In this document: one piece after another, positions 6,611 to 63,266 of the stretch
Position numbering within the stretch: the first letter of the stretch is position 1
How the letters are laid out: every line of letters begins with the position of its first letter
Virus record (IMG/VR): IMGVR_UViG_3300032242_000738
Span: 1-64,000 of that record
Origin: a virus
Strand: one strand, 5' to 3'
DNA length: 64,000 nucleotides
Notes under the pieces: model-generated
Seen by the model: the letters and a program-made list of their open reading frames with translations, nothing else
What the model was told of the DNA's origin: nothing
Database searches by the model: none
Made by a program: the position numbers and the translations under genes

Positions 6611-7642
6611 ATGGTTGAATTGAATTACAAAGAACATCTAGTCTATTACATGATTAATAACCTACGATTAAGTAGGTATGATATTCGTTTCCTTCAAAAC
6701 CTTGAAAAAATTAGTATAGTTAAAAAAGTTATTACTAGCAATCAGGCTGAACTAGTTGATAAACTTATAGAAAAATATGAACGTCAATTTGTAAAAAATC
6801 AATTGTTCACTAGTGAATTATTAAAACTGCCATGGAAAACAATAATAGTAGAAACTACTGATGAATATACCTCTGCTCATATAGGTATATTGGAAGATAA
6901 CATCATATTGAAAACTCCATACAATAAATTGTTTATTGGAGCATTTAGGTCACTCAGTCAATCTAGTTTTGTTTGGGACCATGTCAATAAATACTATATT
7001 GCTGATTTAAGTACACATTCATTAAAACTGTCAATACACATGGTAAAAAAGTTCTTTAACGAAGTTAGATATAGCGACAATGTTAAAAAACTATTGGATC
7101 AATTAGATTACTATAAAGATGTAAAATATTGGAAACCAACACTAGTTAATAGTAATGGTAATTACATTATTGCTTGCACTAACAATGCACTAAATGAAGC
7201 TATTAGTCATATTGAACTAAACACAGAATTGACTACAATGGCTGAATTAGTAAGATATGGAATAGATATTGATGAGGATATTTTTCTAACTGATGAAGAA
7301 AGATTTGCAGGATCATATAATCCCAAAATAGAATTGTCAAAGATATGTGATATTGTGCCATGGTTAAAGAATATCAAATGTGATTATGTTTCAGTATCAG
7401 GTGTGGGTCTATCAACTTCAGTTAAGTTTAAAATTGAATTTAAACAGGCACTGGAACGTGCAGGAATAAAGTATAATGATACACTAAAGGTTATAGGATC
7501 GGAACATGTAAAACAATATAAGTTCCCTGTAATAGTCAAATTCAGATTAATGTCAGATTTCACAGAATCTGTACATATGGCAAAAGTAATCACTATTGTA
7601 AATAGTCAACCAGTTAACTTGGAAAAGAATGAAACAATGTAA
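6611..7642 (+). CDS. hypothetical protein upstream of uvsW
   Basis: 343-aa ORF behind TTGTCT-17-TATAAT (6577-6605). Confidence 0.7.
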   Translation: MVELNYKEHLVYYMINNLRLSRYDIRFLQNLEKISIVKKVITSNQAELVDKLIEKYERQFVKNQLFTSELLKLPWKTIIVETTDEYTSAHIGILEDNIILKTPYNKLFIGAFRSLSQSSFVWDHVNKYYIADLSTHSLKLSIHMVKKFFNEVRYSDNVKKLLDQLDYYKDVKYWKPTLVNSNGNYIIACTNNALNEAISHIELNTELTTMAELVRYGIDIDEDIFLTDEERFAGSYNPKIELSKICDIVPWLKNIKCDYVSVSGVGLSTSVKFKIEFKQALERAGIKYNDTLKVIGSEHVKQYKFPVIVKFRLMSDFTESVHMAKVITIVNSQPVNLEKNETM

Positions 7643-9086
7643 AATAATCGTCAAAGACGAAGTAAATGTAAAAATTGAGGGACTTGAACTATCAGAACGT
7701 AAAGCTCTAATGAAAATGTTTGAGTACGAAATACCCGGTGCACGTTATCTACCTGCAGTACGTTTAGGTAGATGGAATGGTAAGGTTAGTTACTTCAGTC
7801 TAGCCGGTAGTACGTACATCAATCTACTTCCTGAAATACTTCCTTACCTAGATAATGCAGGATATGATATTGAACTAGATGATTTACGTGATTACACTAC
7901 AACCTTTACTTTTGACAAAGTGTCCGAGAATACATTTATACATAAGAACTGGCCTAAAGGTCATCCTAAAGAAGGTACCCCAGTAGAATTACGTGATTAT
8001 CAAATTGAAATCGTAAACAACTTCTTAGAAAACCCACAAGCATTACAAGAAATCGCTACTGGTGCAGGTAAAACACTAATGACTGCCGCACTTAGCCATA
8101 GTGTTGAGAAGTATGGACGTAGTATTGTTATTGTCCCAAACAAAAGTCTGGTAACACAAACAGAAGCAGATTACATTAATCTTGGATTAGATGTTGGTGT
8201 ATACTTTGGTGATCGTAAAGAATACAATAAAACACATACCATCTGTACTTGGCAAAGTCTTAACAATATGCTTAAGAAAACTAAGTCAGGTGAAGCAGAA
8301 GTAGAGATTGGTGACTTCATTGAGGGTGTAGTTTGTGTAATGGTTGATGAAGTACATATGGCAAAAGCCGATGCACTAAAAACACTACTTACTAGTGTAT
8401 TCAGTAAAGTGCCCATTCGTTGGGGATTGACAGGAACTATCCCTAAAGCTAAGTTTGAATCACAAAGTATCTTTGTAAGTTTGGGTAATGTTATTGGTAA
8501 ACTAAGTGCAAGTGAATTGCAGGATCAGGGTGTATTAGCACGTTGTCATGTTAACATTATACAGTTACAAGATGGTAAAGAATTTACTAACTACCAAAGC
8601 GAACTAAAACATTTACTAGAAGATAGTGAACGATTGGATAAGATTGCCAGTTTAATCAGTGGTATTAATGATACAGGTAACACATTGATATTAGTTGATA
8701 GGGTCAATGCAGGTAAAGAGATTGTTAACAGATTACCCGGTAGTGTATTTGTTAGCGGTGCTACTAATATGAATGAAAGGAAAGAAGAATATGATGAAGT
8801 TGCTACAAGCACTAACAAGATTATCGTGGCTACATATGGTGTGGCTGCAGTTGGCATTAATATCCCTAGAATTTTTAATTTGGTGCTCATTGAGCCTGGT
8901 AAATCGTTTGTGCGAGTTATCCAGTCTATTGGTAGGGGCATCCGAAAAGCTGAGGATAAAGATCATGTCCAAATATACGACATAACTAGTAGTTGTAAGT
9001 TTGCCAAACGTCATTTAACCCAACGTAAAGCTTTTTATAAAGAGGCTAATTACCCTTTTGACGTAGAAAAGTTGACTTATAGATAA
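7629..9086 (+). CDS. uvsW: UvsW-like SF2 DNA helicase
   Basis: LRDYQ, ATGAGKT, DEVH, GLTGT, QSIGRGIR. Confidence 0.9.
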   Translation: MKQCKIIVKDEVNVKIEGLELSERKALMKMFEYEIPGARYLPAVRLGRWNGKVSYFSLAGSTYINLLPEILPYLDNAGYDIELDDLRDYTTTFTFDKVSENTFIHKNWPKGHPKEGTPVELRDYQIEIVNNFLENPQALQEIATGAGKTLMTAALSHSVEKYGRSIVIVPNKSLVTQTEADYINLGLDVGVYFGDRKEYNKTHTICTWQSLNNMLKKTKSGEAEVEIGDFIEGVVCVMVDEVHMAKADALKTLLTSVFSKVPIRWGLTGTIPKAKFESQSIFVSLGNVIGKLSASELQDQGVLARCHVNIIQLQDGKEFTNYQSELKHLLEDSERLDKIASLISGINDTGNTLILVDRVNAGKEIVNRLPGSVFVSGATNMNERKEEYDEVATSTNKIIVATYGVAAVGINIPRIFNLVLIEPGKSFVRVIQSIGRGIRKAEDKDHVQIYDITSSCKFAKRHLTQRKAFYKEANYPFDVEKLTYR

Positions 9087-9106: not shown

Positions 9107-9607
9107 ATGCGTATACTTACATTAGAAAATTCCTATTATAATCTTGAAACACTTCCGGAAGAAATAGATGACCTTCGTTTTGCTATCTTAGATAACAGTA
9201 ATCCACAAAATGTAGATTATCATTATATCCCATTAATCTTTTTGGAATCATTTAACAGTCCGGCACTTGTATTAAAGATTGGTAATCAAACAATCAAAAT
9301 GCCAGTAGATTGGCAAATATTAATTGGTGAGCAAGAACATGGTGATTTAGAAACATTACCATTAACAAGTATCAATGATAGAGGATTTAATGCTTTTGAG
9401 TTTAATCCACTAACTGCATTTAGTCCTAGCTTTGTACCCATTGAGATTGTAGATATTTACCATGATGTAACATGGTATGCACCACGATTGAAAAACGGAC
9501 AATTCTTATGTGTACCGATTGATGACGGGCCTAAGCCCCGATGTGTATATTTTGTAAAAGAGATTAGTCGTAATTGTGAGATTGTGGACTATAGTCAGGC
9601 TTTCTAA
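9107..9607 (+). CDS. hypothetical protein, possible degenerate Hint fold
   Basis: 166-aa beta-rich ORF; see findings. Confidence 0.65.
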   Translation: MRILTLENSYYNLETLPEEIDDLRFAILDNSNPQNVDYHYIPLIFLESFNSPALVLKIGNQTIKMPVDWQILIGEQEHGDLETLPLTSINDRGFNAFEFNPLTAFSPSFVPIEIVDIYHDVTWYAPRLKNGQFLCVPIDDGPKPRCVYFVKEISRNCEIVDYSQAF

Positions 9608-10197
9608 TGGCAACTAAAAAGACTACTCCAATTGATGAGAAATTTGTAGCGCAAGACTTTGACTTGTTTGATGCACTTACTGCTATGGACAAGAAAGACT
9701 ATGGTTATTATGATAGGTTAAGTGAAGAACAACAAAAGAAGTTTGTACCCTACATGATGACACATTGGATGAGTGCTATTAAGGGCGATGGAGCTGTTCA
9801 AGATTATTATTTGCGTAGTGTAGACTATCATGCCAATAAACATTTGTTTAATGAATATGTACAGAAACATCCCAAATTGCAATGGTATATGTTATGTGCA
9901 AGTAGTCCGGGACTAGGCAAACAATTTCATCAATGGATCCCGCATTTAGGTAGCAAAATAACATCATTAAAAGAACCTGCTAAAACAAAAGAAATAAAAG
10001 AATATTATACTAAGATTTATCCTAAGGTAGATAGTGATGATATTGATGAGATAGCAAAGGCTTTTGTACAAGAACACAAACGCAAATGTTATTTGGCAGA
10101 ACTATATCCCAATTGTAAACAATCAGACATTGAAATTCTCAGTCAATTAGTAACTGAAGAAGATATCAAGCAATATGAAAAAGACCGAGGAAATTGA
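9607..10197 (+). CDS. gp62: clamp loader small subunit (gp62-like)
   Basis: KKFVPYMMTHWMS...HPKLQWYML...KQFHQWI pattern. Confidence 0.65.
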   Translation: MATKKTTPIDEKFVAQDFDLFDALTAMDKKDYGYYDRLSEEQQKKFVPYMMTHWMSAIKGDGAVQDYYLRSVDYHANKHLFNEYVQKHPKLQWYMLCASSPGLGKQFHQWIPHLGSKITSLKEPAKTKEIKEYYTKIYPKVDSDDIDEIAKAFVQEHKRKCYLAELYPNCKQSDIEILSQLVTEEDIKQYEKDRGN

Positions 10198-10873
10198 TAA
10201 CAAACAGTGTTGCGAGTTTTGTAAAGCAGTGTTCCAACGTGAAAGTACAATACTTAAACATATATGTGAACCCAAACGTAGATGGTTAGAGCGTGACCGT
10301 CAGGGTAATCGTGTGGGTTTCCAAGCTTGGTTACAGTTCTATAAGAAGAATACTGCAGGTACAAAGAATCGCACATATGAAGAATTTATCAAGAATCCCT
10401 ATTATCTTGCCTTCATTAAGTTTGGTAACTATTGTGTAGATATCAAGTGTATCAACGTAAGTAGATTTAGTGATTGGTTATTAAAGAATAGTATACGTAT
10501 TGATAATTGGCGACAAGATAGTAACTATACAAGGTTCTTATGTGAATATTTGCGTACTGAAGATCCATTAGATGCAATACATCGTAGTATAGAAACTACC
10601 ATAGAAAAAGCAGAAGCTGAACATATTCAAAGTAGAGATTACTTACGTTATGGTAATGTAAACAACATATGTTATGAGATTGCCAGAGGAAGAATCAGTC
10701 CATGGTTATTGTATCAGAGTACTAGTGGTGTAGAGTTCTTAAGTACATTACGTGATGACCAGCAACGAATGATTATGGATTATATTAATCCAGAGCAATG
10801 GGCATTGAAGTTTAATCGTGATAGTGATAGTGTGAAACAAGTTAAGGAATTATTGAATGCCGGCGGGTACTAA
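10175..10873 (+). CDS. hypothetical protein with N-terminal zinc finger
   Basis: CEFC...KHIC. Confidence 0.7.
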   Translation: MKKTEEIDNKQCCEFCKAVFQRESTILKHICEPKRRWLERDRQGNRVGFQAWLQFYKKNTAGTKNRTYEEFIKNPYYLAFIKFGNYCVDIKCINVSRFSDWLLKNSIRIDNWRQDSNYTRFLCEYLRTEDPLDAIHRSIETTIEKAEAEHIQSRDYLRYGNVNNICYEIARGRISPWLLYQSTSGVEFLSTLRDDQQRMIMDYINPEQWALKFNRDSDSVKQVKELLNAGGY

Positions 10874-11054
10874 AGTTCGTATAGGATGGCAAATAGATTT
10901 CCAATATAATAATTGGAATGAAATTTGTGTTTGGGCCATAGAAAAGTTTGGCTTACCGGGTGATAAATTTGAGACACATGCAACAGAAGAATACATGGAT
11001 TTTTATTTTATAAATGAACGTGATGCTATCTTATTTGAGTTGACTTGGGGATGA
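10857..11054 (+). CDS. small FxLRW-family paralogue 1
   Basis: ends DAILFELTWG. Confidence 0.65.
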   Translation: MPAGTKVRIGWQIDFQYNNWNEICVWAIEKFGLPGDKFETHATEEYMDFYFINERDAILFELTWG

Positions 11055-11266
11055 AACAAGTAACACTGTACATTGATGCTAAAAGAACTATGGAAATAGG
11101 TAATGAGTTACGTACTAGTGGTTGGATCCAAGGTGTTGATTTTGATTATGCTTATTTTAGAACTGAACATGACAATTTCAGCTACGATCCCGTAGTAAGA
11201 CGACATGCAGTATTTACATTTTACAATGATAGTAATGCTAGTTATTTCATGTTGAGGTATGGATGA
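11051..11266 (+). CDS. small FxLRW-family paralogue 2
   Basis: ATGA coupling; ends NASYFMLRYG. Confidence 0.65.
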   Translation: MKQVTLYIDAKRTMEIGNELRTSGWIQGVDFDYAYFRTEHDNFSYDPVVRRHAVFTFYNDSNASYFMLRYG

Positions 11267-11475
11267 GCGATTTACCTTATACTATAATTACTAAGAAACT
11301 TGACCATGATGCAGAAGAATGGTGTAGGGATAACATAGGAGAACGATGGTTTGCTGTGGGTAGAAAGACAGGTAATTGGACATGTTTTTGGGCAGGAAGA
11401 GATGATCCTAAAAGTTATCGTTGGCACTTTAGAAATGAAAAAGATGCTTTTTTCTTTGCGTTGAGATGGCAATGA
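11263..11475 (+). CDS. small FxLRW-family paralogue 3
   Basis: EWC..NIG; ends DAFFFALRWQ. Confidence 0.7.
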   Translation: MSDLPYTIITKKLDHDAEEWCRDNIGERWFAVGRKTGNWTCFWAGRDDPKSYRWHFRNEKDAFFFALRWQ

Positions 11476-11720
11476 TACTTAAAATTGAAGATGGTACAGT
11501 GTACGGTGAACACTATTATTGTGTTTCACTCTCACGTGGTTCAAACGAAGTAATACTCTGGGATGATATTTCAAAATGGTGTGTAGATACATTTGGTCCT
11601 AGTGGTACGGAAGATAGACCCGGAGCATGGACTCCGTATGAACGTTGGTATATAAATAATGCCAGGTATTGGTTTAAAGATAAAAAAGATTTAGAGTGGT
11701 TCAGTCTACGATGGCAGTAA
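11472..11720 (+). CDS. small FxLRW-family paralogue 4
   Basis: KWCVDTFG; ends DLEWFSLRWQ. Confidence 0.7.
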   Translation: MILKIEDGTVYGEHYYCVSLSRGSNEVILWDDISKWCVDTFGPSGTEDRPGAWTPYERWYINNARYWFKDKKDLEWFSLRWQ

Positions 11721-11953
11721 TATTTCAACATTACGACAATAATGTTGGTTGGGAGAACACTAAGCCGGGCTGGCATGAATGTTCAGTCAGAGCGGAACAC
11801 ATTGACAAATACGTTGAAATACTAGATTGGGTAGAACAGCACGTAGGTAAATACACAAGACATTGCAGATGGTGTGTGACTGATACCAGTATAGCAAGTT
11901 TTAAATTTAGATATGAACGTGATTATATCATGTTTACATTGAGGTGGTCATGA
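11711..11953 (+). CDS. small FxLRW-family paralogue 5
   Basis: DWVEQHVG; ends DYIMFTLRWS. Confidence 0.7.
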   Translation: MAVIFQHYDNNVGWENTKPGWHECSVRAEHIDKYVEILDWVEQHVGKYTRHCRWCVTDTSIASFKFRYERDYIMFTLRWS

Positions 11954-12177
11954 CCTATCCTGTATTCAATACAGAATTAAACTTACCGGCATACACCTCA
12001 CATAATTGGACTGAAGTTCAACAATGGTGTAATGATAATATAGGTCCATGGAATGAATCTTGGTATAAATTGGGTATGGATCCAGCTGTCGGAATATTTT
12101 CTGATGTTAAATACCGTGACACATATCTTTTTAAGAACGAACATGATAGACTATTGTTTATATTGAGGTGGAGTTGA
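11950..12177 (+). CDS. small FxLRW-family paralogue 6
   Basis: QWCNDNIG; ends DRLLFILRWS. Confidence 0.7.
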   Translation: MTYPVFNTELNLPAYTSHNWTEVQQWCNDNIGPWNESWYKLGMDPAVGIFSDVKYRDTYLFKNEHDRLLFILRWS

Positions 12178-12443
12178 TGGCGTCAATACCCCATATACAA
12201 GACTATGATGACGATGATCCAGAAATAGAAAGACGAAAGAATCGTTGGAACTATTGGGAAGCATTGAAGAAAGTTCGCAAAGAATATATGCAACAGAACA
12301 GTGAGTTTGATGCATATGACTTTGAAGATTATCTTGTAGGACAATATGGCATAAAGATGAACATAGTTAATGGTAACATCACTGATGGTTATGAGATAGT
12401 TAATGAAAAGAAATACTTAATATTTTTACTGAAATTCCAATGA
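12177..12443 (+). CDS. small protein, divergent member of the same array
   Basis: ends EKKYLIFLLKFQ. Confidence 0.6.
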   Translation: MASIPHIQDYDDDDPEIERRKNRWNYWEALKKVRKEYMQQNSEFDAYDFEDYLVGQYGIKMNIVNGNITDGYEIVNEKKYLIFLLKFQ

Positions 12444-12797: not shown

Positions 12798-13361
12798 ATG
12801 GCAAACCACATTATGATAGATATTGAAAGTTTGGACACAACACCCAATTGTGTTATACTAACCATTGGTGCAGTACGTTTTGATCCTAAAGGTAGTGGTG
12901 TAGTTGAACGATTGGAACTACGTCCTACAGTTGAGGATCAAACAGAGATTTACAATAGAAGTATCAATGAAGATACATTACGTTGGTGGAGTGAGCAGAG
13001 CCCTGAAGCACTTGAAGAAGCATTGGGAGACAATGGACGCATGCCATTAAAAGACTGCATGGAGATACTTTATAAGTTTTGTTGGAACCGTGATGCTGTG
13101 TGGAGTAATGGTGCAAGCTTTGATGTGGTTGTGATGGAAAATGCATTCAGACAAACAAGTGATAAGCCTAATCCAATACCCTGGCCTTTTTGGACAATTA
13201 GAGATACAAGAACTATTTACGACATTACAGGCGTAAAACTTAAAGATGGTGGGCATAGTACAAGTCATAAAGCAGTTGAAGATGCCGAAAGACAAGCAAT
13301 TGTTGTGCAAAAAGCATATACTAAACTTATTAAAGCAGAATTGGTAGCACCAGCAAAATGA
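12798..13361 (+). CDS. DEDDh 3'-5' exonuclease
   Basis: HIMIDIESL, WSNGASFD, RDTRT, HKAVEDA. Confidence 0.85.
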   Translation: MANHIMIDIESLDTTPNCVILTIGAVRFDPKGSGVVERLELRPTVEDQTEIYNRSINEDTLRWWSEQSPEALEEALGDNGRMPLKDCMEILYKFCWNRDAVWSNGASFDVVVMENAFRQTSDKPNPIPWPFWTIRDTRTIYDITGVKLKDGGHSTSHKAVEDAERQAIVVQKAYTKLIKAELVAPAK

Positions 13362-13921
13362 GAATTGATAGTGACATTGATATAGATTTCGGTGACAGAG
13401 ATACTTTGTTAAGAGTAATACCGCATACCAGAGCGGCTATGCGTAATGTTAAACCTATACGTAATCATGCTACTGGTGTTTATATTACTGATATACCATA
13501 TGATCCGGTGAATAACATAGCAAGTATTGATTATACTGACGCAGAAAAGCGTGGGTATTTTAAACTAGATTTATTGAATGTTCACGTTTATAATCAAGTC
13601 CGTGATGAACAACATTTACTAGAATTAATGCGTGAACCTGATTGGGGTAAGTTGAAAGATCCAGTTTTTGTAGAGAAACTAATACATTTGAACAATCAGT
13701 ATTATAATCTACAAAAGATGCCAGAACCAGTAAATAGTATCCCAAGGTTAGCTATGTTTCTAGCTGTTATTCGCCCCGGTAAAAAGCATCTGATTGGGGA
13801 ACGATGGACTGATATTGCTAAAACAGTATGGGATAAGGGAACTGACGGATATACTTTTAAGAAGTCGCATGCCATAAGTTATTCATGGCTTGTTGCAGTT
13901 CATATGAATCTATTAGGGTAA
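13358..13921 (+). CDS. miniature DnaE (Pol III alpha)-like catalytic fragment
   Basis: SDIDIDF, HATGVY, GYFKLDLL, AVIRPG, YTFKKSHAISY. Confidence 0.8.
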   Translation: MRIDSDIDIDFGDRDTLLRVIPHTRAAMRNVKPIRNHATGVYITDIPYDPVNNIASIDYTDAEKRGYFKLDLLNVHVYNQVRDEQHLLELMREPDWGKLKDPVFVEKLIHLNNQYYNLQKMPEPVNSIPRLAMFLAVIRPGKKHLIGERWTDIAKTVWDKGTDGYTFKKSHAISYSWLVAVHMNLLG

Positions 13922-14293
13922 GCGTTTAACCAGTGTAATGCTACGGCGTTTGCTTCTACGTTTGTTTAATTCAATGATACTACAAACAGGACCATGTAGT
14001 ATTGTGAGACTTTTGTTATTGAATGTTCTAAGATAAGGTTTAAAGATACTCCATTCGTCTTTTAAGAATAGATTTATGGGTATTAATCTATTACTTTCCC
14101 ACCACCAAACGTCTCCTAGTTCTAAGAATTTCTCTTTAATAGTATTATCTATAATAGATCCATAGTCATATATAGTGGTGACTATATCGTCACGGTTTTG
14201 GACAATACCCACATAATCTTGATTTGCATAGGAACAAATGGTTATGAAAGGGTGATTTTCGCTTAGGCGTTTAAAAAACTCGTTTTGTATCAT
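13913..14293 (-). CDS. hypothetical protein
   Basis: 126-aa ORF with GATAAATA late box on minus strand at 14314-14321. Confidence 0.7.
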   Translation of the reverse strand: MIQNEFFKRLSENHPFITICSYANQDYVGIVQNRDDIVTTIYDYGSIIDNTIKEKFLELGDVWWWESNRLIPINLFLKDEWSIFKPYLRTFNNKSLTILHGPVCSIIELNKRRSKRRSITLVKRLP

Positions 14294-15207: not shown

Positions 15208-16182
15208 ATGTTTGATATTTTATCTATAATTCCCGGCAAAAAGAAAACAACAACTAGCGGATGGCATAGTTTTAATGCCATATGTTGTAGCCATTTAGGT
15301 CATAAACCCGATCGTAGAATGCGTGGTGGTATTAAGTTTGATGGACAAACTAATTGGTCAATGCATTGTTTCAACTGTGGGTATAAATGTAACTTTGTAT
15401 TAGGACGTAGTATCAGCTATAAAACTAAACAATTATTGTTATGGTGTGGTATTGATGATACACAAATAGGCAAGTGGAGTTTAGAAAGCCTACAACAAAA
15501 AGACTTATTAGATATTGTAATTCAAAAGAAAACTAAAATAAAAATTAAATTCAAAGATCATGAATTACCAGAAGGTATAATGCTTGATGGAAATAACCCA
15601 ACACACAAAGTGTACATTGATTATGTGCAAGCGAGGGGGATAAATTATAATGAGTATCCGTTCTTGATAACACCTAATCTACCCGGTCGTTATGCAAATA
15701 GAATAATCATCCCCTATACATATAAGAATAAAATCGTTGGTCACACCAGTAGATTCTTAGATAACAAAATACCTAAATATATTAATGAACAACAGCCTGG
15801 ATACGTGTTCAATATTGATATACAGAAACCTGAATGGCAGGTATGTATATTAACTGAAGGTATCTTTGATGCATTAAGCATTGATGGTATAGCAATTATG
15901 CATGATGACATAAGCAATGAACAAGCACAATTAATTGCATCATTAAATAAACAAATTATTGTTGTACCAGATAGAGATAAAACTGGGTTAAAGTTATGTG
16001 ATAGAGCTTTAGAGTTGGGCTATAGTGTTAGTTTACCTAATTGGGAACCGGGTATTAAGGACGTTAACGATGCTGTTGTGAGATATGGTAAGTTACCTAC
16101 ACTATTAAGTATCTTGCAAAATGCTACAATGAGTAAAATTAAAATAGAAATGCAGAGGAAGAAAATTGAGAAAACAATCTAA
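15208..16182 (+). CDS. gp61: DNA primase (gp61-like)
   Basis: Zn motif HCFNCG; TOPRIM TEGIFDALS, VPDRD, KDVND. Confidence 0.85.
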   Translation: MFDILSIIPGKKKTTTSGWHSFNAICCSHLGHKPDRRMRGGIKFDGQTNWSMHCFNCGYKCNFVLGRSISYKTKQLLLWCGIDDTQIGKWSLESLQQKDLLDIVIQKKTKIKIKFKDHELPEGIMLDGNNPTHKVYIDYVQARGINYNEYPFLITPNLPGRYANRIIIPYTYKNKIVGHTSRFLDNKIPKYINEQQPGYVFNIDIQKPEWQVCILTEGIFDALSIDGIAIMHDDISNEQAQLIASLNKQIIVVPDRDKTGLKLCDRALELGYSVSLPNWEPGIKDVNDAVVRYGKLPTLLSILQNATMSKIKIEMQRKKIEKTI

Positions 16183-17605
16183 TAATAAAGAATATACCGT
16201 TGAAATGCAGAAGTTGTTTCTGCAAATGATGATTACCAACGCAGAACTTTATACTAGAGTTATGAACATTATGAACAGTGAAAACTTTGATAAGAGTTTA
16301 AGACCAGTTGCAGAATTGTTTAAAGAGCATACAACAAAGTATAGTGTACTGCCGGATAGCACACAAATTAAAGCAATTACTGGACAAGATATTGAAGTGA
16401 TACCTGAACTAGTACAAGGACATTATGATTGGTTCTTTGAGGAATTTGAAAGTTTTACTAGGCGACAGGAACTAGAACGCGCTATTCTTAAATCAGCCGA
16501 CTTACTAGAAAAGGGTGAGTTTGAACCTGTTGAGAAACTAATCAAGGATGCTGTACAAATCAGTTTACAGAAAGACATGGGTACAGACTATTTCTTAGAT
16601 CCAGCTGGTCGTATTAACAAATACTTCAATAGTGGTGGACAAGTAAGTACAGGTTGGCCCCAGCTTGACAAGATATTATATGGTGGCTTTAGTCGGGGTG
16701 AATTGAATATCTTTGCAGGTGGTAGTGGTTCAGGTAAGAGTTTAGTTATGATGAACATTGCATTGAATTGGTTGCAAACTGGGATGAGTGGTGTATATGT
16801 TACACTTGAATTGAGTGAAGAATTGACCAGTTTGCGTACAGATGCTATGTTAACTAATATGGGTACAAAAGACATTCGTAGAGATATTGGTTCAACTGAG
16901 CTTAAGGTTAAGATGGTTGGTAAGAAGTCAGGACAATATCGTGTTAAAGCATTACCCGCACAAAGCAATGTAAATGACATTCGTGCATATTTGAAAGAGG
17001 TACAGATACAAACAGGGATACGTATTGACTTTGTGATGATTGACTATTTGGATCTAGTTATGCCAGTTAGTGTTAAAGTTAATCCTAACGATCAATTTAT
17101 TAAAGACAAGTATGTTGCTGAAGAATTGCGTAATCTTGCAAAAGAGATGGGTATATTAATGGTAACAGCAAGTCAGTTGAATCGTACAGCGGTTGATGAA
17201 ATTGAGTTTGACCACAGTCATATTGCAGGTGGTATTAGTAAGATTAATACTGCTGATAATGTATTTGGTATCTTTACAAGTCGTAGTATGCGTGAACGTG
17301 GGAAGTATCAGATTCAATGTATGAAAAGTCGTAGTAGTACTGGTGTAGGACAGAAGATTGATTTAGATTATAATGTAGAAACTATGCGTATTAGTGATTC
17401 TGGTGGTGACGGTGAAGATAGTTATAGACCACAACCTAGTGCTACTGATATTATGAGTAAGTTAAAACCACAATCAGTATTACAATCTACAGAACCAATC
17501 ATTGACCAAACTACAGGAGAGATATTAGAACCTGAAAACAAGAAGGTTGTAGTAGATGTTCAGGGTTCAAAACTCAAAAGTTTACTTAATAGTTTAAAGA
17601 AATAA
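16166..17605 (+). CDS. gp41: replicative DnaB-like helicase (gp41-like)
   Basis: GGSGSGKS, LELSE, IDYLDL, TASQLNR. Confidence 0.9.
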   Translation: MRKQSNNKEYTVEMQKLFLQMMITNAELYTRVMNIMNSENFDKSLRPVAELFKEHTTKYSVLPDSTQIKAITGQDIEVIPELVQGHYDWFFEEFESFTRRQELERAILKSADLLEKGEFEPVEKLIKDAVQISLQKDMGTDYFLDPAGRINKYFNSGGQVSTGWPQLDKILYGGFSRGELNIFAGGSGSGKSLVMMNIALNWLQTGMSGVYVTLELSEELTSLRTDAMLTNMGTKDIRRDIGSTELKVKMVGKKSGQYRVKALPAQSNVNDIRAYLKEVQIQTGIRIDFVMIDYLDLVMPVSVKVNPNDQFIKDKYVAEELRNLAKEMGILMVTASQLNRTAVDEIEFDHSHIAGGISKINTADNVFGIFTSRSMRERGKYQIQCMKSRSSTGVGQKIDLDYNVETMRISDSGGDGEDSYRPQPSATDIMSKLKPQSVLQSTEPIIDQTTGEILEPENKKVVVDVQGSKLKSLLNSLKK

Positions 17606-17641: not shown

Positions 17642-17896
17642 ATGCAAAAACAAACTCGCAGCCTTCTGCAGGAATTGGAAGCTATCGGCAATAATCGTGA
17701 TACAAGTCATGTTATTGAGAGTAGAGCCCACAACATTATTACCAGTGCTATAAATTTGCTAGAGATGATTAATAGGAATTATCCTAAAGAGCAAGCAGAG
17801 ATATTAGAGAGAAAATTGCTTGGTGCAATTAAATCACGTGATCAGGGTAAGTTTTCTAAATCTATAAAGAAGAACAGCGACAAAGAACAGTTATGA
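17642..17896 (+). CDS. late hypothetical protein
   Basis: GATAAATA at 17618, SD AGGA. Confidence 0.7.
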   Translation: MQKQTRSLLQELEAIGNNRDTSHVIESRAHNIITSAINLLEMINRNYPKEQAEILERKLLGAIKSRDQGKFSKSIKKNSDKEQL

Positions 17897-19041
17897 ATTT
17901 ATCGGAAGCATTAGCCTTATTAAAATCTAAAATTGACAGTTTATCTATAAATGAAGATAAGGGTCATTTAGACCATCCAGAAGATTTAATCTTTTTAGGT
18001 GGAAGTGAGGGTGCTAATCGTGCCGTACAATCTATCGTTGCTACAGCTAAAAATCCAGCAACTGTTACAATTAAATGGGATGGATATCCTGCATTGATAT
18101 TTGGTCGTAATAGTTCAGGTAAGTTTAGTATTATGGACAAGCATATGTTCAATAAGAAAGATGGTACAGGACGTCAAGTATTCAGTCCAGAACAATTTGT
18201 ACAATATGACCAAGCACGTGGTGTAGAACGTGATAGTTTATGGCCTATTATTAATGAGATATGGCCTGGTTTAGAAAAAGCTAGTAAAGGTGCTAAAGGC
18301 TATTATTGGGGTGATTTGTTGTTCCATCAACCCTTAAAAGACCAAAATGGTAGTTATGTTTTTAAAGCTAATCCTAATGGCATTACTTATAAAGTAGATA
18401 GCAATAGTCCAATAGGACAACTGATAGGTGGAAAACGTGCTGGTATTGCAGTACATCAGTATATTGATCCTAATGCAATGACTACGGATGAAGCAACTAC
18501 ATTGAATGGAAATATAGGACAATTAAAGAATAATAGTGATGTAGCCATAGTTCCTAGTGCTATGCCAACAGCTCCTAAGCTTGCAGTAGATAATACATTA
18601 GTAAAAAATGCACAGAATGCTATAAAGAAATATGGTCCTGCAGTAGACCAATTGATGAATAGTGCACCTCAAGCACGTAATACGTTTAATCAATTGTTTA
18701 CTGTATATATTAACAAGAAGATTGTTGCAGGGGATTTGAACAATTTACTGGCTGGCTTTATGGATTTTGTACAGAATAGGCCAATGACTGATAGAATGAA
18801 AGCAAAGATAATTGAACATTTGCAAGCCAATGAAGCTGGACTAGTTGGTGCGTTTACTATCTGGAGTGAGATTTATAAACTAAAAATGTCATTGGTTAGT
18901 CAGCTTAATAAAGCCGCAGAAGTTAGTCCTGTTAAAGGATATTTACAAGATGGAACCGAGACACATGAAGGTTTTGTGGCAAATGGCTTAAAATTTGTGG
19001 ATAGAATGGGTTTCAGCCGTCAGAATTTAGCTGGAAGATAA
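17893..19041 (+). CDS. conserved phage protein with ligase-like nucleotidyltransferase motifs
   Basis: HLDHPED, IKWDG, GDLLF, HEGFV..GLKFVDR. Confidence 0.6.
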   Translation: MNLSEALALLKSKIDSLSINEDKGHLDHPEDLIFLGGSEGANRAVQSIVATAKNPATVTIKWDGYPALIFGRNSSGKFSIMDKHMFNKKDGTGRQVFSPEQFVQYDQARGVERDSLWPIINEIWPGLEKASKGAKGYYWGDLLFHQPLKDQNGSYVFKANPNGITYKVDSNSPIGQLIGGKRAGIAVHQYIDPNAMTTDEATTLNGNIGQLKNNSDVAIVPSAMPTAPKLAVDNTLVKNAQNAIKKYGPAVDQLMNSAPQARNTFNQLFTVYINKKIVAGDLNNLLAGFMDFVQNRPMTDRMKAKIIEHLQANEAGLVGAFTIWSEIYKLKMSLVSQLNKAAEVSPVKGYLQDGTETHEGFVANGLKFVDRMGFSRQNLAGR

Positions 19042-60734: not shown

Positions 60735-60782
60735 GTATCCAAAATTATTGTATTACAATACCATTTGTGATATAATAAACAA

Positions 60783-61289
60783 ATGAAAACAGACAAATAC
60801 GGACAATTAATATATAATCAAGATGATTTATGTAATCTGTTTTTACAAGATCCAACACGCACTATCAGTAACGCCTTAGTAGATAGACCAATAGAATTTA
60901 ATGGGTTTCTATCATTAGAAAACGTTCCAAATTTAAAAGAATATGTTAATTCAACGTTATCTTTAGAAAAATTTGATAAAATAAATCAATCAAACTGGCA
61001 TATGCCCATAGAATACTATGAGCTAGATATTGCTAAATGGGTGTTAGATCAATGTAAAGATGAAAGTGAATTGCAACGTGCAGGTGATGAACTGATTAAG
61101 TTCCAAGAACGTAATATGTTTGTATTGCTTCAATATTTAAAATATTTGGTTGATACAATGCGTAAACATAACATAGTATGGGGTGTAGGTCGCGGTAGTA
61201 GTGTAGCAAGTTTTGTATTGTTTATTATAGGAATACACCGTATAAATAGTTTATATTACCAATTAGATATTGGTGAGTTTTTAAAATAA
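60783..61289 (+). CDS. miniature DnaE (Pol III alpha)-like N-terminal palm fragment
   Basis: R...EL, VWGVGRGSSVAS.VLF.IGI, ends LDIGEFLK. Confidence 0.8.
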   Translation: MKTDKYGQLIYNQDDLCNLFLQDPTRTISNALVDRPIEFNGFLSLENVPNLKEYVNSTLSLEKFDKINQSNWHMPIEYYELDIAKWVLDQCKDESELQRAGDELIKFQERNMFVLLQYLKYLVDTMRKHNIVWGVGRGSSVASFVLFIIGIHRINSLYYQLDIGEFLK

Positions 61290-61298
61290 GGAAATAAT

Positions 61299-61679
61299 AT
61301 GGCTAATTACAGAACAGCAATGGGTAAAAACGTTGACATGGCAGCACTAACTGCTAAAAATGAAAAAACCAGAGCAGTGGGAAATATGAAAGTTAATGCA
61401 CGTGGTGATTCTATTGATGCAAATGGACATATTGTGCAAACTGCAACAACTAAGGTCAATAATGCATATAACAGAACTGTGGGCAATCGTTCAGCACAAC
61501 CTGTACGAGCAAGACCATCAGCTCCGGCTCCTACGCCACCTAAGCCGTCAATTGATTTGTCACAACTAAATGAAATTGAACGTGAACTAGAAGAATCATT
61601 GGAAGATGATTTGGAAATTGAAAAGATCAAAGCACAAGAAGTTGAAAAAATTAAAACACAGGAAAACAAAAAGAAATGA
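61299..61679 (+). CDS. hypothetical protein
   Basis: RAVGNMKVNARGD motif, SD AAGGA. Confidence 0.7.
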   Translation: MANYRTAMGKNVDMAALTAKNEKTRAVGNMKVNARGDSIDANGHIVQTATTKVNNAYNRTVGNRSAQPVRARPSAPAPTPPKPSIDLSQLNEIERELEESLEDDLEIEKIKAQEVEKIKTQENKKK

Positions 61680-62053
61680 GTGATTACAGTAAACCGGCAT
61701 TTAGCCCCACCAAAGTTGATAAATTAACATTCTTCAATAAAGATATCATTGTAACTGATATGAAGTTTGACCAACGTGTAACTTCAGGTGGTATTATATT
61801 GTTGGACGATGACAAGAAAAGTTCGGGTATTCGTCCAAGATGGGCTAAGATTTATGGTTTGGGTCCAGAACAAGATGACCCACAATTAAGTATTGGAAAA
61901 TATATCCTTATCAGTCACGGTCGTTGGACACGTGGAATTACTGTTGAAACACCAGAGGGCAAATTGACGTTGCGAAAAGTAGATCCTAATGATATACTAC
62001 TAGTATCGGATGAGCCGATGGACGATGAAACATTAAGCGATAAGGTATACTAA
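61676..62053 (+). CDS. GroES-like co-chaperonin
   Basis: TSGGIIL, G.GP, DIL motifs. Confidence 0.75.
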   Translation: MSDYSKPAFSPTKVDKLTFFNKDIIVTDMKFDQRVTSGGIILLDDDKKSSGIRPRWAKIYGLGPEQDDPQLSIGKYILISHGRWTRGITVETPEGKLTLRKVDPNDILLVSDEPMDDETLSDKVY

Positions 62054-62346
62054 TGAAAAGCTGGATTAGACAAAAATTACATAATTTTATATTCCCACAC
62101 GATAATGAGGTTGTGGAAACTAAAACTCATAGAAGAGGTGCTATTGTTTCTTCTAGATCCTCACATATTGATAGTAGAGGTATGAACTTTACAATACATA
62201 TGGCTAATGGCGGGTATGTGTTAGAGTACTCAACATACAATGAAAAAACAGACAGGCACGATACCGCACTACACATCATTACTTCTGATACAGATTTGGG
62301 TCAAGGTATTGCACACGTTATCACACTAGAAATGCTAAGAAAATGA
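62053..62346 (+). CDS. hypothetical protein
   Basis: 97-aa coupled ORF. Confidence 0.65.
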   Translation: MKSWIRQKLHNFIFPHDNEVVETKTHRRGAIVSSRSSHIDSRGMNFTIHMANGGYVLEYSTYNEKTDRHDTALHIITSDTDLGQGIAHVITLEMLRK

Positions 62347-63266
62347 ACAAGAAACTTTGGGTAGAATCATACAGACCACAAACAGTACAAGATTATGTAT
62401 TTGTGGATGATAGACAAAAAGATCAGGTAGAAGGTTGGGTACGTGATGGTAGTATTCCACATCTGTTACTATCAGGTGATCCGGGTACTGGTAAAACAAC
62501 ACTTGCTAAAGTATTGATACATGAACTTGATGTAAGTGAATATGATGTATTAGAAATCAATGCAAGTCGTGAGAATAGCGTTGATGTTGTGCGTAATAAG
62601 ATTGTTAACTTTGTACAAACAATGCCCTTTGGTAATTTCAAAGTGGTATTACTAGATGAAGCAGATTATTTGACACCAGCTGGTCAAGCGGCATTGCGTA
62701 ACGATATGGAAGCATATCACATGACCGCACGATTTATATTAACTTGTAACTATCAACATAGGATTATCCCTGCATTGAAGTCACGCTGCCATGAGTTTCA
62801 CATTACAAAAACAGATAAAACAGAGTTCACTGCGAGAGCGGCAACTGTGTTAGTAAGTGAAAACATTGAGTTTGATTTAGATGATTTAGATAGTTATGTT
62901 CGTGCTACATATCCAGACTTACGTAAATGTCTAAATCAATTACAAGTTAATAGTAGTACAGGTAAACTATTACCACCACAAACACAAGGTAGTAGTGAAG
63001 ATGAGTTATTAGTAGAAGCAACTAATCTATTCAAAGCAGGTAAGATACTTGAAGGTAGACAGCAACTATTGCAATATATTGCATTGTATCCTACACGTAT
63101 TGAAGATACATATGCATGGATGTATCAGAATTTAGATTTGTGGGGTAAGTCTAATGAAAAGCGTGATGCCAGTATTATTGTTATTAGAAATGGTTTAGCT
63201 AATCTAAGCTTAGTGGGTATTCCCGAGATAAGTTTGGCAGCCACATTGGTAGAATTAACAAGTTAA
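62343..63266 (+). CDS. gp44: clamp loader large subunit (gp44/RFC-like)
   Basis: WVESYRP, GDPGTGKTT, INAS, LDEAD, SRC, PDLR. Confidence 0.92.
   Translation: MNKKLWVESYRPQTVQDYVFVDDRQKDQVEGWVRDGSIPHLLLSGDPGTGKTTLAKVLIHELDVSEYDVLEINASRENSVDVVRNKIVNFVQTMPFGNFKVVLLDEADYLTPAGQAALRNDMEAYHMTARFILTCNYQHRIIPALKSRCHEFHITKTDKTEFTARAATVLVSENIEFDLDDLDSYVRATYPDLRKCLNQLQVNSSTGKLLPPQTQGSSEDELLVEATNLFKAGKILEGRQQLLQYIALYPTRIEDTYAWMYQNLDLWGKSNEKRDASIIVIRNGLANLSLVGIPEISLAATLVELTS

Follow-up and report, generated by a model that had tools for sequence, protein, structure and literature searches.

A split and minimal form of the DNA polymerase III alpha subunit was previously reported by Iyer, Anantharaman, Krishnan, Burroughs and Aravind (2021, Viruses 13:63, PMC7824862) in the group 2.2 jumbo phages, where it is accompanied by a family B polymerase. 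In the account given there, an N-terminal piece that binds the nucleoside triphosphate and a C-terminal piece that binds Mg2+ and the template are encoded by distantly located genes, and no other Pol III domains are present; fused forms are not mentioned in sections 3.4.1 and 3.5 of that article. Neither of these two genes is mentioned in the main text of the omics study of PA5oct (PMC7318152). In the PA5oct-like phage MIJ3, it is the family B polymerase that is split, and the split is associated with an intein/HNH element (PMC6892783). The bacterial DnaE proteins, such as those of E. coli (2hnh/5m1s) and Taq (2hpi/3e0d), are single chains of about 1160 aa, which carry the GRGS loop, DxDxD, K-x-D, RPG and KSH motifs in this order. 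A C-family polymerase that is encoded in two distant genes is also known from cyanobacteria, in which the DnaE pieces carry the halves of an intein and are spliced to a full-length chain.

In this study, we analysed a 64,000-nucleotide stretch of DNA (hereafter, the window) from an uncultured phage, IMG/VR record IMGVR_UViG_3300032242_000738, positions 1 to 64,000. The two genes of interest are as follows:

60783..61289, plus strand: N-half of the predicted split minimal Pol III alpha, 168 aa, with the GxGRGS nucleotide-binding loop and the C-terminus EFLK
13358..13921, plus strand: C-half of the predicted split minimal Pol III alpha, 187 aa, with D6/D8(/D10), K69-x-D71, the RPG motif and the FKKSH motif

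Judging from the sequence comparisons described below, it is highly probable that this pair represents the two subunits of a split minimal Pol III alpha-like enzyme of the group 2.2 (RaK2/PA5oct/Atu_ph07-type) jumbo phages. The window proteins are homologous to those of PA5oct, Atu_ph07, SCTP-2 and RaK2-like phages, and share with the system of Iyer et al. the two kinds of pieces, the distant genes and the lack of other Pol III domains. The window copy differs in its origin from an uncultured phage, in the DEDD exonuclease that is coupled to the C-half and in a putative promoter that lies 6 nt before the ATG of the N-half, none of which is essential. The preliminary description of this DNA had proposed the pair as an undescribed system; in view of the 2021 report, this claim has to be withdrawn. 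Compared with the bacterial DnaE, the same motifs follow each other in the same order, but the window pair comprises only 355 aa in two chains, has neither a PHP domain nor HhH, is without the presumed thumb, most of the fingers and the C-terminal domain, appears to lack the clamp-binding motif and OB, and is probably not the sole polymerase of its genome. Unlike the cyanobacterial DnaE, it has no intein sequence and is cut elsewhere, just before the catalytic Asp. The similarity to the split polymerase of MIJ3 is that a polymerase gene of the same phage group is in pieces, but there it is of a different family, the genes are adjacent and the interruption is due to a mobile element.

The assignment of the N-half is based on several profile matches. 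The Pfam family PF07733 (DNA_pol3_alpha) was found with an E-value of 1e-7 (score 32.3 bits, threshold 23.9), with residues 92-167 of the protein corresponding to positions 19-94 of the 260 positions of the profile, and the PHROGs family phrog_11127, annotated as 'DNA polymerase', matched at 1e-37. Residues G134, G136, R137, G138 and S139 were invariant in an alignment of 34 sequences; in DnaE, the triphosphate of the incoming nucleotide is bound by the GxGRGS loop. Using hhalign, residues 125-168 were placed on residues 307-350 of a full-length DnaE (L009, an ATG-started ORF of a metagenomic locus), the aligned stretch ending in ...FERFLN350 (probability 90.6%); the C-terminal letters of the 168-aa N-half are GVGRGSSVASFVLFIIGIHRINSLYYQLDIGEFLK. 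Residues 1-90 had no match to anything known, and the N-half as a single sequence had no significant match to solved structures. The N-half was additionally found in 12 loci of cellular genomes from unrelated phyla, all of which were metagenome bins or uncultured-isolate assemblies and none a cultured isolate; we read these loci as mis-binned phage contigs.

The C-half begins with MRIDSDIDIDF, so that the first catalytic Asp is preceded by five residues. A Pfam search gave no match for this protein, and phrog_11778, also annotated as 'DNA polymerase', matched at 1.9e-57. Among 79 C-half sequences, D6, D8, K69, D71 and P140 were invariant, D10 was conserved in at least 90%, and the RPG and FKKSH finger motifs, which are specific to DnaE, were nearly invariant. 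The profile of these 79 homologues matched the E. coli Pol III alpha (5m1s) with an E-value of 5.9e-6, its positions 55-140 corresponding to E. coli residues 539-641 and its positions 151-180 to residues 739-769; moreover, hhalign placed the C-half on residues 467-597 of the DnaE reference (probability 96.6%). Because the search of solved structures with the single C-half sequence gave no significant match, its link to DnaE rests on profiles. Timinskas et al. (2014, PMC3919608) described D401, D403 and D555 as absolutely conserved across the C family and D405 as specific for DnaE. The equivalents of this catalytic triad (E. coli numbering) and of the DnaE-type D405 are all found in the C-half, which thus has the fourth Asp of the DnaE type and not the Asn of the PolC type.

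The two genes are separated by 46,861 bases, and yet on the DnaE reference the end of the N-half and the start of the C-half are only two to three residues apart. Past residue 350, the L009 DnaE continues as P-D-R-I-S-M-P-D358-F-D360-I-D362-F, which by motif corresponds to M1-R-I-D-S-D6-I-D8-I-D10-F of the C-half. Additionally, a profile that included natural fused proteins spanned the junction on residues 413-482 of the Taq Pol III alpha with an E-value of 3.4e-5. Mixed alignments of fused proteins, N-halves and C-halves (A4 and A6) were left out of the analysis; N-halves were misplaced in A4, which was checked, and A6 was judged by its identities of 14-20%. Together with PF07733, the PHROGs and the other profile matches, the short gap bears out the earlier reading of the two ORFs as complementary halves of one DnaE-like core with abutting ends, 47 kb apart. 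The cut runs inside the catalytic palm, and its position is fixed: after the G of GxGRGS, the N-half stops at 35 residues in 78 of 80 IMG/VR ORFs and at 36 residues in the other two, and the N-halves of PA5oct, Atu_ph07 and BF have the same end point.

The statement that no intein is attached to either half is likewise in agreement with our results. No Hint/intein families were found in either ORF in Pfam at E <= 0.1, the N-half stop was fixed in 80/80 ORFs, and the C-half has no room for an intein since only five residues stand before its first catalytic Asp. Together with the distance of 47 kb, the missing intein families and the lack of room also speak against a rejoining by an intein, which forms part of a broader alternative, namely, that a captured dnaE gene is breaking down and has left these ORFs as its remains, or that an intein, an intron or a recoding event joins the two pieces again. 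In the CBB genome paper, the counterpart of the N-half was considered to be a Pol III alpha truncated to 172 aa compared to 1120 aa (PMC5259590), which fits with a remnant. Against decay, however, the active-site columns are invariant, the ORFs terminate at a fixed position and the C-half is matched by at least 7991 protein clusters at 90% identity, with 364 representatives at 50%, and we find this alternative scarcely credible. As these numbers indicate, the split mini Pol III family is very abundant among uncultured jumbo phages.

What the pair has lost compared with DnaE bears on what it may still do. About 25 residues (C-half 10-35) stand in place of about 105 in DnaE (362-467), and the missing block is presumably the thumb; further on, about 10 residues stand in place of E. 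coli 641-739. According to the alignments, the mini Pol III is without about 80 residues at the DnaE thumb, about 90 of the fingers and everything past approximately E. coli residue 775. The C-half ends about six residues past the stretch that was aligned to E. coli 739-769 and HHH_6 is absent, so that (HhH)2, the clamp-binding motif and the OB domain are apparently missing. PHP, DNA_pol3_finger (PF17657) and HHH_6 had no matches in the phage's own contig or in two 100%-complete relatives, while PF07733 had one match in each of them; the absence of a PHP domain, as first noted from the window, therefore extends to complete genomes. Because the thumb, much of the fingers and the later DnaE parts are missing, templated and processive synthesis is not assured. 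No family B polymerase (PolB, PF00136) matched in the phage's own 84-kb contig, which is 24% complete, and a PolB frame of 900-981 aa was present in all four large relatives. Because of this PolB, the pair would be an accessory rather than a stand-alone replicase.

The N-half heads a run of genes that includes the following features:

60768..60776, plus strand: putative extended -10-like element TGaTATAAT, which ends 6 nt before the ATG of the N-half
61299..61679, plus strand: 126-aa neighbour with an AVGN..NARGD N-terminal domain and an acidic tail, phrog_14844 (unknown function)
61676..62053, plus strand: GroES/gp31-like co-chaperonin, phrog_931 'head morphogenesis' at 1.1e-11, weak Cpn10 match at 0.092
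62343..63266, plus strand: clamp-loader large subunit of the T4 gp44 type, phrog_168 at 1.2e-73, AAA at 2.7e-16, DNA_pol3_delta2 at 7.5e-8

A hexamer that matched TATAAT in at least five of six positions and ended 4-9 nt before the start codon was found in 64 of 79 sequences, compared to 0-13 of 79 at fourteen other offsets. This implies that the N-half run would start with a leaderless or near-leaderless early transcript. Generic promoter and terminator scans were at or below chance. The 126-aa neighbour was directly downstream of the N-half in 83/83 loci; it had no Pfam match, and a 15-sequence profile of it had no match among solved structures. The GroES/gp31-like gene was also present in all 83 loci. 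The clamp-loader gene, the last of the run, was found in 74 of the 83 loci, with no match in the fetched stretch of the other nine, and its identification as gp44, which had been made from the window sequence, was confirmed by phrog_168.

The C-half lies in a second cluster, which was found to contain the following genes:

7629..9086, plus strand: SF2 helicase in the UvsW position, which opens the cluster, ResIII at 6.1e-19, DEAD, Helicase_C
9607..10197, plus strand: 196-aa ORF, phrog_11758 (unknown function)
10175..10873, plus strand: 232-aa zinc-finger-like protein with invariant C13-x2-C16...H29-x-C31, phrog_11058 at 2.2e-51
12798..13361, plus strand: DEDD 3'-5' exonuclease, PF16473 at 3.4e-34, the stop of which overlaps the C-half start (ATGA)
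13913..14293, minus strand: convergent 126-aa ORF with a WWW-motif, phrog_11637 at 5.4e-31, which overlaps the 3' end of the C-half by 9 nt
15208..17605, plus strand: Toprim primase and DnaB-type helicase, Toprim_2 at 1.7e-5, DnaB_C at 1.2e-19, downstream of the C-half

Because the Toprim primase and DnaB follow downstream, the C-half is placed in a replisome gene cluster; this primase/DnaB order is shared with PA5oct, Atu_ph07, BF and CBB. The position of the SF2 helicase is that of the 'RNA-DNA + DNA-DNA helicase' in Serratia phage BF and in phage CBB. In most relatives, among them PA5oct, Atu_ph07, BF and L096, the C-half is immediately preceded by the gene for the 232-aa protein, for which weak C2H2 zinc-finger matches were obtained (best 0.0016); in CBB, the two are separated by one small gene. 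In 13 of 14 loci, the convergent 126-aa ORF was a neighbour of the C-half; it had no solved-structure match. Profiles of the 126-aa neighbour of the N-half, of the 232-aa protein and of the convergent ORF found no DnaE match among solved structures. The preliminary description had assigned the 196-aa ORF to gp62, the other clamp-loader subunit, which we could not confirm: it had no Pfam match even at E 10, PF16790 was not found in the contig, hhalign against T4 gp62 gave a probability of 0.14%, and none of the 19 phage records found using tblastn was named a clamp loader. Only a weak language-model lead (0.91) pointed to gp62, namely to clusters in which 11% of the members have PF16790.

The exonuclease gene was beside the C-half in 7 of 11 uncultured relatives, at 1.2 kb in one more and in none of three isolates, and its adjacency is thus lineage-specific. 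In a BLASTP comparison, the window exonuclease had no similarity to the DnaQ-type exonuclease of phage CBB. This gene is relevant to the alternative in which the pair does form one active site, but that of a nucleotidyltransferase of the Pol-beta fold with another job, such as untemplated tailing, the processing of primers or ends together with the exonuclease, or a nucleotide signal. The translational coupling of the C-half, in the window lineage, to an Rv2179c-like exonuclease, a family that Pfam describes as a 3'-5' exoribonuclease, would fit such a role, as would the loss of the presumed thumb, of much of the finger region and of the parts for HhH, OB and clamp binding, and the presence of a full PolB in the large relatives. 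However, the adjacency is absent from the isolates, both genes are in replisome clusters with helicases, a primase and a clamp loader, and the DnaE-specific finger motifs RPG and FKKSH are kept almost without change. We consider this other job to be unlikely.

The two halves occur together. The N-half was found in 95 phage records and the C-half in 96, with near-identical host tallies; using a fused query, we obtained 186 places in 96 records, none of which covered at least 80% of it in one place. Among the contigs that were selected by the N-half, 11 of 16 also had the C-half, as did 7/7 of those at least 43% complete and 2/2 of the complete ones, and 4 of 5 contigs that were selected by the C-half also had the N-half. 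In relatives, the distance between the two genes was measured as 37-119 kb. Co-occurrence and a conserved split point had been proposed as a check of the pairing, and both were found, with 7/7 contigs at that completeness carrying both genes and the same cut in 80/80 ORFs. The two genes are conserved in RaK2/PA5oct/Atu_ph07-type jumbo phages as well as in many uncultured relatives. Among the matches listed, the isolate homologues gave tblastn E-values of 3e-27 to 1e-17 for the N-half and of 6e-40 to 8e-27 for the C-half, and the identity of the window proteins to those of isolates was at most 46-48%.

In three rare metagenomic proteins of 375-376 aa (P0168, P0271 and P0272), the N-half is followed by the C-half in a single chain, and the join coincides with the cut of the window enzyme. 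They align to residues 4-168 of the window N-half (E 5e-20) and to residues 5-181 of the C-half with a join of 10 residues, and PF07733 is present in all three. These are the only three clusters known, on contigs of 2.4-5.9 kb that provide no context, P0168 being encoded on one 2.4-kb contig. Because in a tree with midpoint rooting they form one clade (support 100) that is nested among stand-alone C-halves, the fused forms are probably the result of a secondary fusion. A search for longer C-half homologues via shared words found none, which is weak evidence because the same search also missed P0168. A scan of viral contigs for the context of the fused proteins gave nothing; the only loci from a metagenome scan for fused proteins were two DnaE genes of the ordinary, full-length kind (L008 and L009), which were then used as references, and L101, from the scan with P0277, was spurious, a giant-virus transferase gene with a short-word match only. 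With their single chain, the fused 375-aa forms would be a convenient starting point for an assay.

The fusion also helps to judge whether the two pieces could have separate roles, for example, the N-half in regulating the clamp loader through nucleotide binding and the C-half as a DNA-binding factor. The genes are 37-182 kb apart in separate runs, each with its own conserved neighbours, as would be expected from independent functions. However, it is one fold that is cut, so that the active site is incomplete in either piece, and none of the catalytic residues has been lost from the N-half or the C-half. Moreover, all of the tested genomes that were complete enough contain both halves, and in one natural lineage the two are fused end to end. 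We regard separate roles as very improbable. We have little doubt that the two proteins are subunits of the same enzyme.

In this two-subunit enzyme, the GxGRGS loop of the N-half would be combined with the three metal-binding Asp, the fourth Asp and the RPG/KKSH finger motifs of the C-half in one active site. The two chains are predicted to associate non-covalently and without splicing, rebuilding a single nucleotidyltransferase site. Both genes are located in replication clusters, the N-half at the head of the run with the putative promoter that ends in gp44, and the C-half between the SF2 helicase and the primase/DnaB. Beside the family B replicase, the enzyme may serve as an accessory DNA polymerase for repair, gap filling or one strand. 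The sequence evidence supports the initial reading as a two-subunit minimal C-family polymerase, and we lean towards an active templated DNA polymerase. No biochemical or structural test of its assembly or activity was found in the literature searched. In a more elaborate and quite doubtful version, the polymerase would consist of more chains, the missing DNA-gripping parts would come from the NARGD, zinc-finger and WWW-motif proteins, and the SF2 helicase might be its partner in DNA synthesis during repair or dependent on recombination.

The arrangement is real, conserved and already known as a sequence-based prediction. What the window adds is a confirmation and a few details, namely the fixed cut, the putative promoter close to the start codon and the partner gene that is always adjacent. 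No smaller relative of the bacterial replicase is known than this C-family polymerase, which is cut through its active site and reduced to about 355 residues. Provided that it is active, it would indicate the minimum of DnaE that catalysis requires and would serve as a natural model of a two-chain polymerase site.

The two halves of the DnaE-like enzyme are encoded on an IMG/VR contig of 84,219 bases (estimated completeness 24%), the first 64 kb of which the window covers, and both open reading frames were found with the ends that the preliminary description had given them:

60783..61289, + strand: N-half, 168 aa, with the GxGRGS loop and the C-terminus ...GVGRGSSVASFVLFIIGIHRINSLYYQLDIGEFLK
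13358..13921, + strand: C-half, 187 aa, with the catalytic DxDxD and the N-terminus MRIDSDIDIDF

The N-half matched the Pfam family PF07733 (DNA_pol3_alpha; E 1e-7; 32.3 bits, the cut-off being 23.9), its residues 92-167 corresponding to profile positions 19-94 of 260, and it matched phrog_11127 'DNA polymerase' over its full length (1e-37); no known relative was matched by residues 1-90. The C-half had no match in Pfam and matched phrog_11778 'DNA polymerase' over its full length (1.9e-57). As single-sequence queries against solved structures, neither half gave anything significant. A profile built from 79 diverse homologues of the C-half matched chains of E. coli Pol III alpha, the best being 5m1s (E 5.9e-6), in which profile positions 55-140 corresponded to residues 539-641 and positions 151-180 to residues 739-769. 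The halves were also compared, using hhalign, with a DnaE reference alignment that consisted of the full-length genes of two loci from the metagenome scan (L008 and L009) and two partial DnaE sequences. N-half residues 125-168 corresponded to DnaE 307-350, ending at ...FERFLN350 (probability 90.6%), and C-half residues 35-142 to DnaE 467-597 (probability 96.6%). After position 350, the reference continues as P351-D-R-I-S-M-P-D358-F-D360-I-D362-F, whose motif counterpart is M1-R-I-D-S-D6-I-D8-I-D10-F of the C-half. The two ORFs therefore abut, as had been proposed, with a gap of 2-3 residues on the DnaE scale.

D6, D8, K69, D71 and P140 were invariant in the 79 C-halves, D10, H37, G40, R139, K168 and H171 were conserved in at least 90% of them, and G134, G136, R137, G138 and S139 were invariant in 34 N-halves. 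The part of Timinskas et al. 2014 (PMC3919608) that deals with these positions describes E. coli D401, D403 and D555 as absolutely conserved across the C family and D405 as a position at which Asp is retained in DnaE and Asn occurs in PolC. Equivalents of all four are present in the phage protein, so the split enzyme is, as judged from these residues, of the DnaE type and not PolC. Our best reading is a two-chain accessory DNA polymerase. Its chains would come together, with no splicing, to form a single active site of the Pol-beta fold, to which one would supply the nucleotide-binding loop and the other the metal ligands. Homology to DnaE, the fixed cut, co-occurrence and natural fusions are demonstrated by the sequences; assembly, templated synthesis and the accessory role are what we deduce.

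The spacing from DxDxD to H-x-x-G-V is about 25 residues in the C-half compared with about 105 in the reference DnaE, and the block missing between them corresponds, in the domain layout of E. coli Pol III alpha, to the thumb. Relative to that enzyme, residues 641-739 are replaced by about 10 residues, and the C-half terminates shortly past the KSH motif. The PHP, DNA_pol3_finger and HHH_6 models had no match in the contig itself or in two 100%-complete relatives (360 and 329 kb), which agrees with the earlier statement that PHP was lacking; no third DnaE fragment was detected in these three sequences, and in each complete relative PF07733 and the C-half were matched exactly once. The main rival explanation accepts a heterodimer and questions templated polymerisation, given the loss of the thumb, of most of the fingers and of every DNA- and clamp-binding domain. 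At L008 (8366-12382), the full-length DnaE is made up of a PHP part of 382 aa and a polymerase part of 933 aa in neighbouring ORFs with 66 nt between them, and this break differs in kind from the phage cut.

The N-half was found in 95 GenBank phage records and the C-half in 96, with nearly equal host tallies (N-half/C-half: Escherichia 34/34, Pseudomonas 11/11, Klebsiella 10/11, Salmonella 8/8, Erwinia 8/8); the matches listed were all to jumbo phages, of the RaK2, PA5oct, Atu_ph07, SCTP-2 and similar kinds. The distance between the halves was 34 kb in Serratia phage BF, 44 kb in PA5oct, 116 kb in SCTP-2 and 182 kb in Atu_ph07. Metagenomes held at least 7991 C-half clusters at 90% identity (364 representatives at 50%), and the IMG/VR scans gave at least 589 N-half and at least 554 C-half stretches. 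Additionally, the N-half was found on 12 contigs from metagenome bins labelled Saccharibacteria, Chitinophagaceae, Polynucleobacter, Fischerella, Rickettsiales, Neomarinimicrobiota (a 335-kb contig), Crocinitomicaceae, Gammaproteobacteria, Legionellales and Thaumarchaeota, which are most likely jumbo-phage contigs that were binned with cells.

The position of the cut was fixed: the N-half stop codon lay 35 residues past the G of GxGRGS in 78 of 80 loci and 36 residues past it in the other two. The C-terminal endings in these loci were EFLK, EFLR, EFIK, DFLK or FLKD, and the N-halves of PA5oct, Atu_ph07 and BF ended in the same manner. Among the larger contigs picked by the N-half, the C-half was also present on 11 of 16, including 7/7 at a completeness of at least 43% and both of the complete ones; the five without it were fragments that were 25-35% complete. 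The N-half was also present on four of the five contigs picked by the C-half, and the fifth was 27% complete with the C-half at most 3.5 kb from the contig end. The preliminary description had named independent loss of one half as evidence against a split enzyme, and no sufficiently complete genome among these 16 and five contigs had lost either. Gene decay is contradicted by this co-occurrence and the fixed cut, together with the homology to DnaE and the natural fusions.

Three metagenomic proteins carry both halves fused. The sole fusion among the 50% representatives, P0168 (375 aa), aligned over residues 15-180 to residues 4-168 of the window N-half (30% identity, E 5e-20) and matched the C-half over residues 190-372; its N part terminates ...IKEFIK, followed by a 10-residue join and then DxD. 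The further fused proteins, P0271 and P0272 (376 aa, 78-81% identical), came from separate assemblies. With a profile that included the fused proteins, Taq Pol III alpha 413-482 aligned unbroken over the junction. The contigs that bear them were 2.4-5.9 kb long, and no phage isolate had a fused gene: in none of 96 records did any one place span 80% or more of the fused query. In a quick maximum-likelihood analysis of 93 C-half sequences, the fused forms made one clade (SH-aLRT 100) nested among stand-alone C-halves in a clade of 12 rows (98); because the root was the midpoint only, secondary fusion is what we infer. Independent functions of the two halves and their splicing into one chain are, like gene decay, contradicted by the data on homology, cut, co-occurrence and fusions taken together.

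The N-half stands first in a tightly packed, co-directional run on the + strand, followed by a 126-aa ORF, a GroES/gp31-like protein, a 97-aa ORF and a gp44-type clamp loader:

60740-60785: putative sigma-70-type promoter, TTG... about 17 nt ... TGaTATAAT, the end of TGaTATAAT lying 6 nt 5' of the N-half ATG
61299-61679, + strand: 126-aa ORF, second gene of the run

The order of the first three genes was the same in 83/83 loci, PA5oct, Atu_ph07 and BF among them, and gp44 was in the run in 74, with no match within the fetched stretch for the remaining nine. A clamp-loader subunit had been expected beside each half; the gp44-type one stands, and gp62 at 9607 was unconfirmed, its sole pointer being a language-model lead. 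Of 79 sequences, 64 had a near-consensus -10 hexamer ending 4-9 nt 5' of the start codon, compared with 0-13 of 79 at fourteen other offsets, and more distant relatives had no promoter element at the N-half start. Its placement suggests a leaderless early transcript. The 126-aa protein of this run has a conserved N-terminal domain of about 60 residues, in which G9, D13, A26, V27, N33, A34, G36 and D37 are invariant (motif ...AVGN..NARGD...), and continues through a variable linker into an acidic tail; it matched no Pfam family or solved structure and is a candidate extra subunit.

The C-half belongs to a replisome cluster that opens with an SF2 helicase. Three conserved ORFs come next, and the C-half is followed by a convergent 126-aa ORF, a gene for a structural protein, a Toprim primase and a DnaB helicase; the order is the same in PA5oct, Atu_ph07, BF and CBB.

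10175-10873: 232-aa protein, phrog_11058, with an invariant N-terminal zinc-finger-like motif, C-x2-C...H-x-C
13913-14293, - strand: convergent 126-aa ORF, phrog_11637, with invariant W63-W64-W65 and a 9-nt overlap with the C-half 3' end

The zinc-finger-like gene adjoins the C-half on the upstream side in PA5oct, Atu_ph07, BF and one uncultured relative. The window lineage has, immediately 5' of the C-half, an insertion of tandem small ORFs, paralogous to one another, and of a DEDD exonuclease (PF16473, 3.4e-34), the stop of which overlaps the C-half start. This adjacency occurred in 7 of 11 uncultured relatives (at 1.2 kb in one more) and in none of three isolates; in CBB the exonuclease is instead of the DnaQ type, lies upstream of the helicase and has no detectable relation to the DEDD one. 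Seven overlapping small ORFs (10857-12443; 65-91 aa), ending ...L-R-W-Q/S or similar, separate the zinc-finger gene from the exonuclease and are not at the same place in PA5oct, Atu_ph07 or BF. The convergent ORF kept its place next to the C-half in 13 of 14 loci; solved-structure and family searches gave no characterised relative. Directly after the DnaB helicase gene lies a DUF6267 protein (17893-19041; 382 aa, 6.1e-40).

The pair had been put forward as an undescribed system; a split minimal Pol III alpha is already known to the field. The relevant part of Iyer et al. 2021 (PMC7824862) describes it in group 2.2 jumbo phages, with its two genes far from each other and as coexisting with a family B polymerase, the CBB genome paper (PMC5259590) records, in its account of this gene, the N-half homologue as a truncated Pol III alpha, and a Pol III alpha subunit appears in a listing of the Atu_ph07 paper (PMC6102473). 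A full-text literature search found no biochemical or structural test of the split enzyme. All four large relatives had a frame of 900-981 aa for a family B polymerase, which was not found on the window's own, 24% complete contig. The assembled enzyme would be an accessory DNA polymerase capable of templated synthesis, and the same part of Iyer et al. proposes that it may help with one-strand synthesis or repair.
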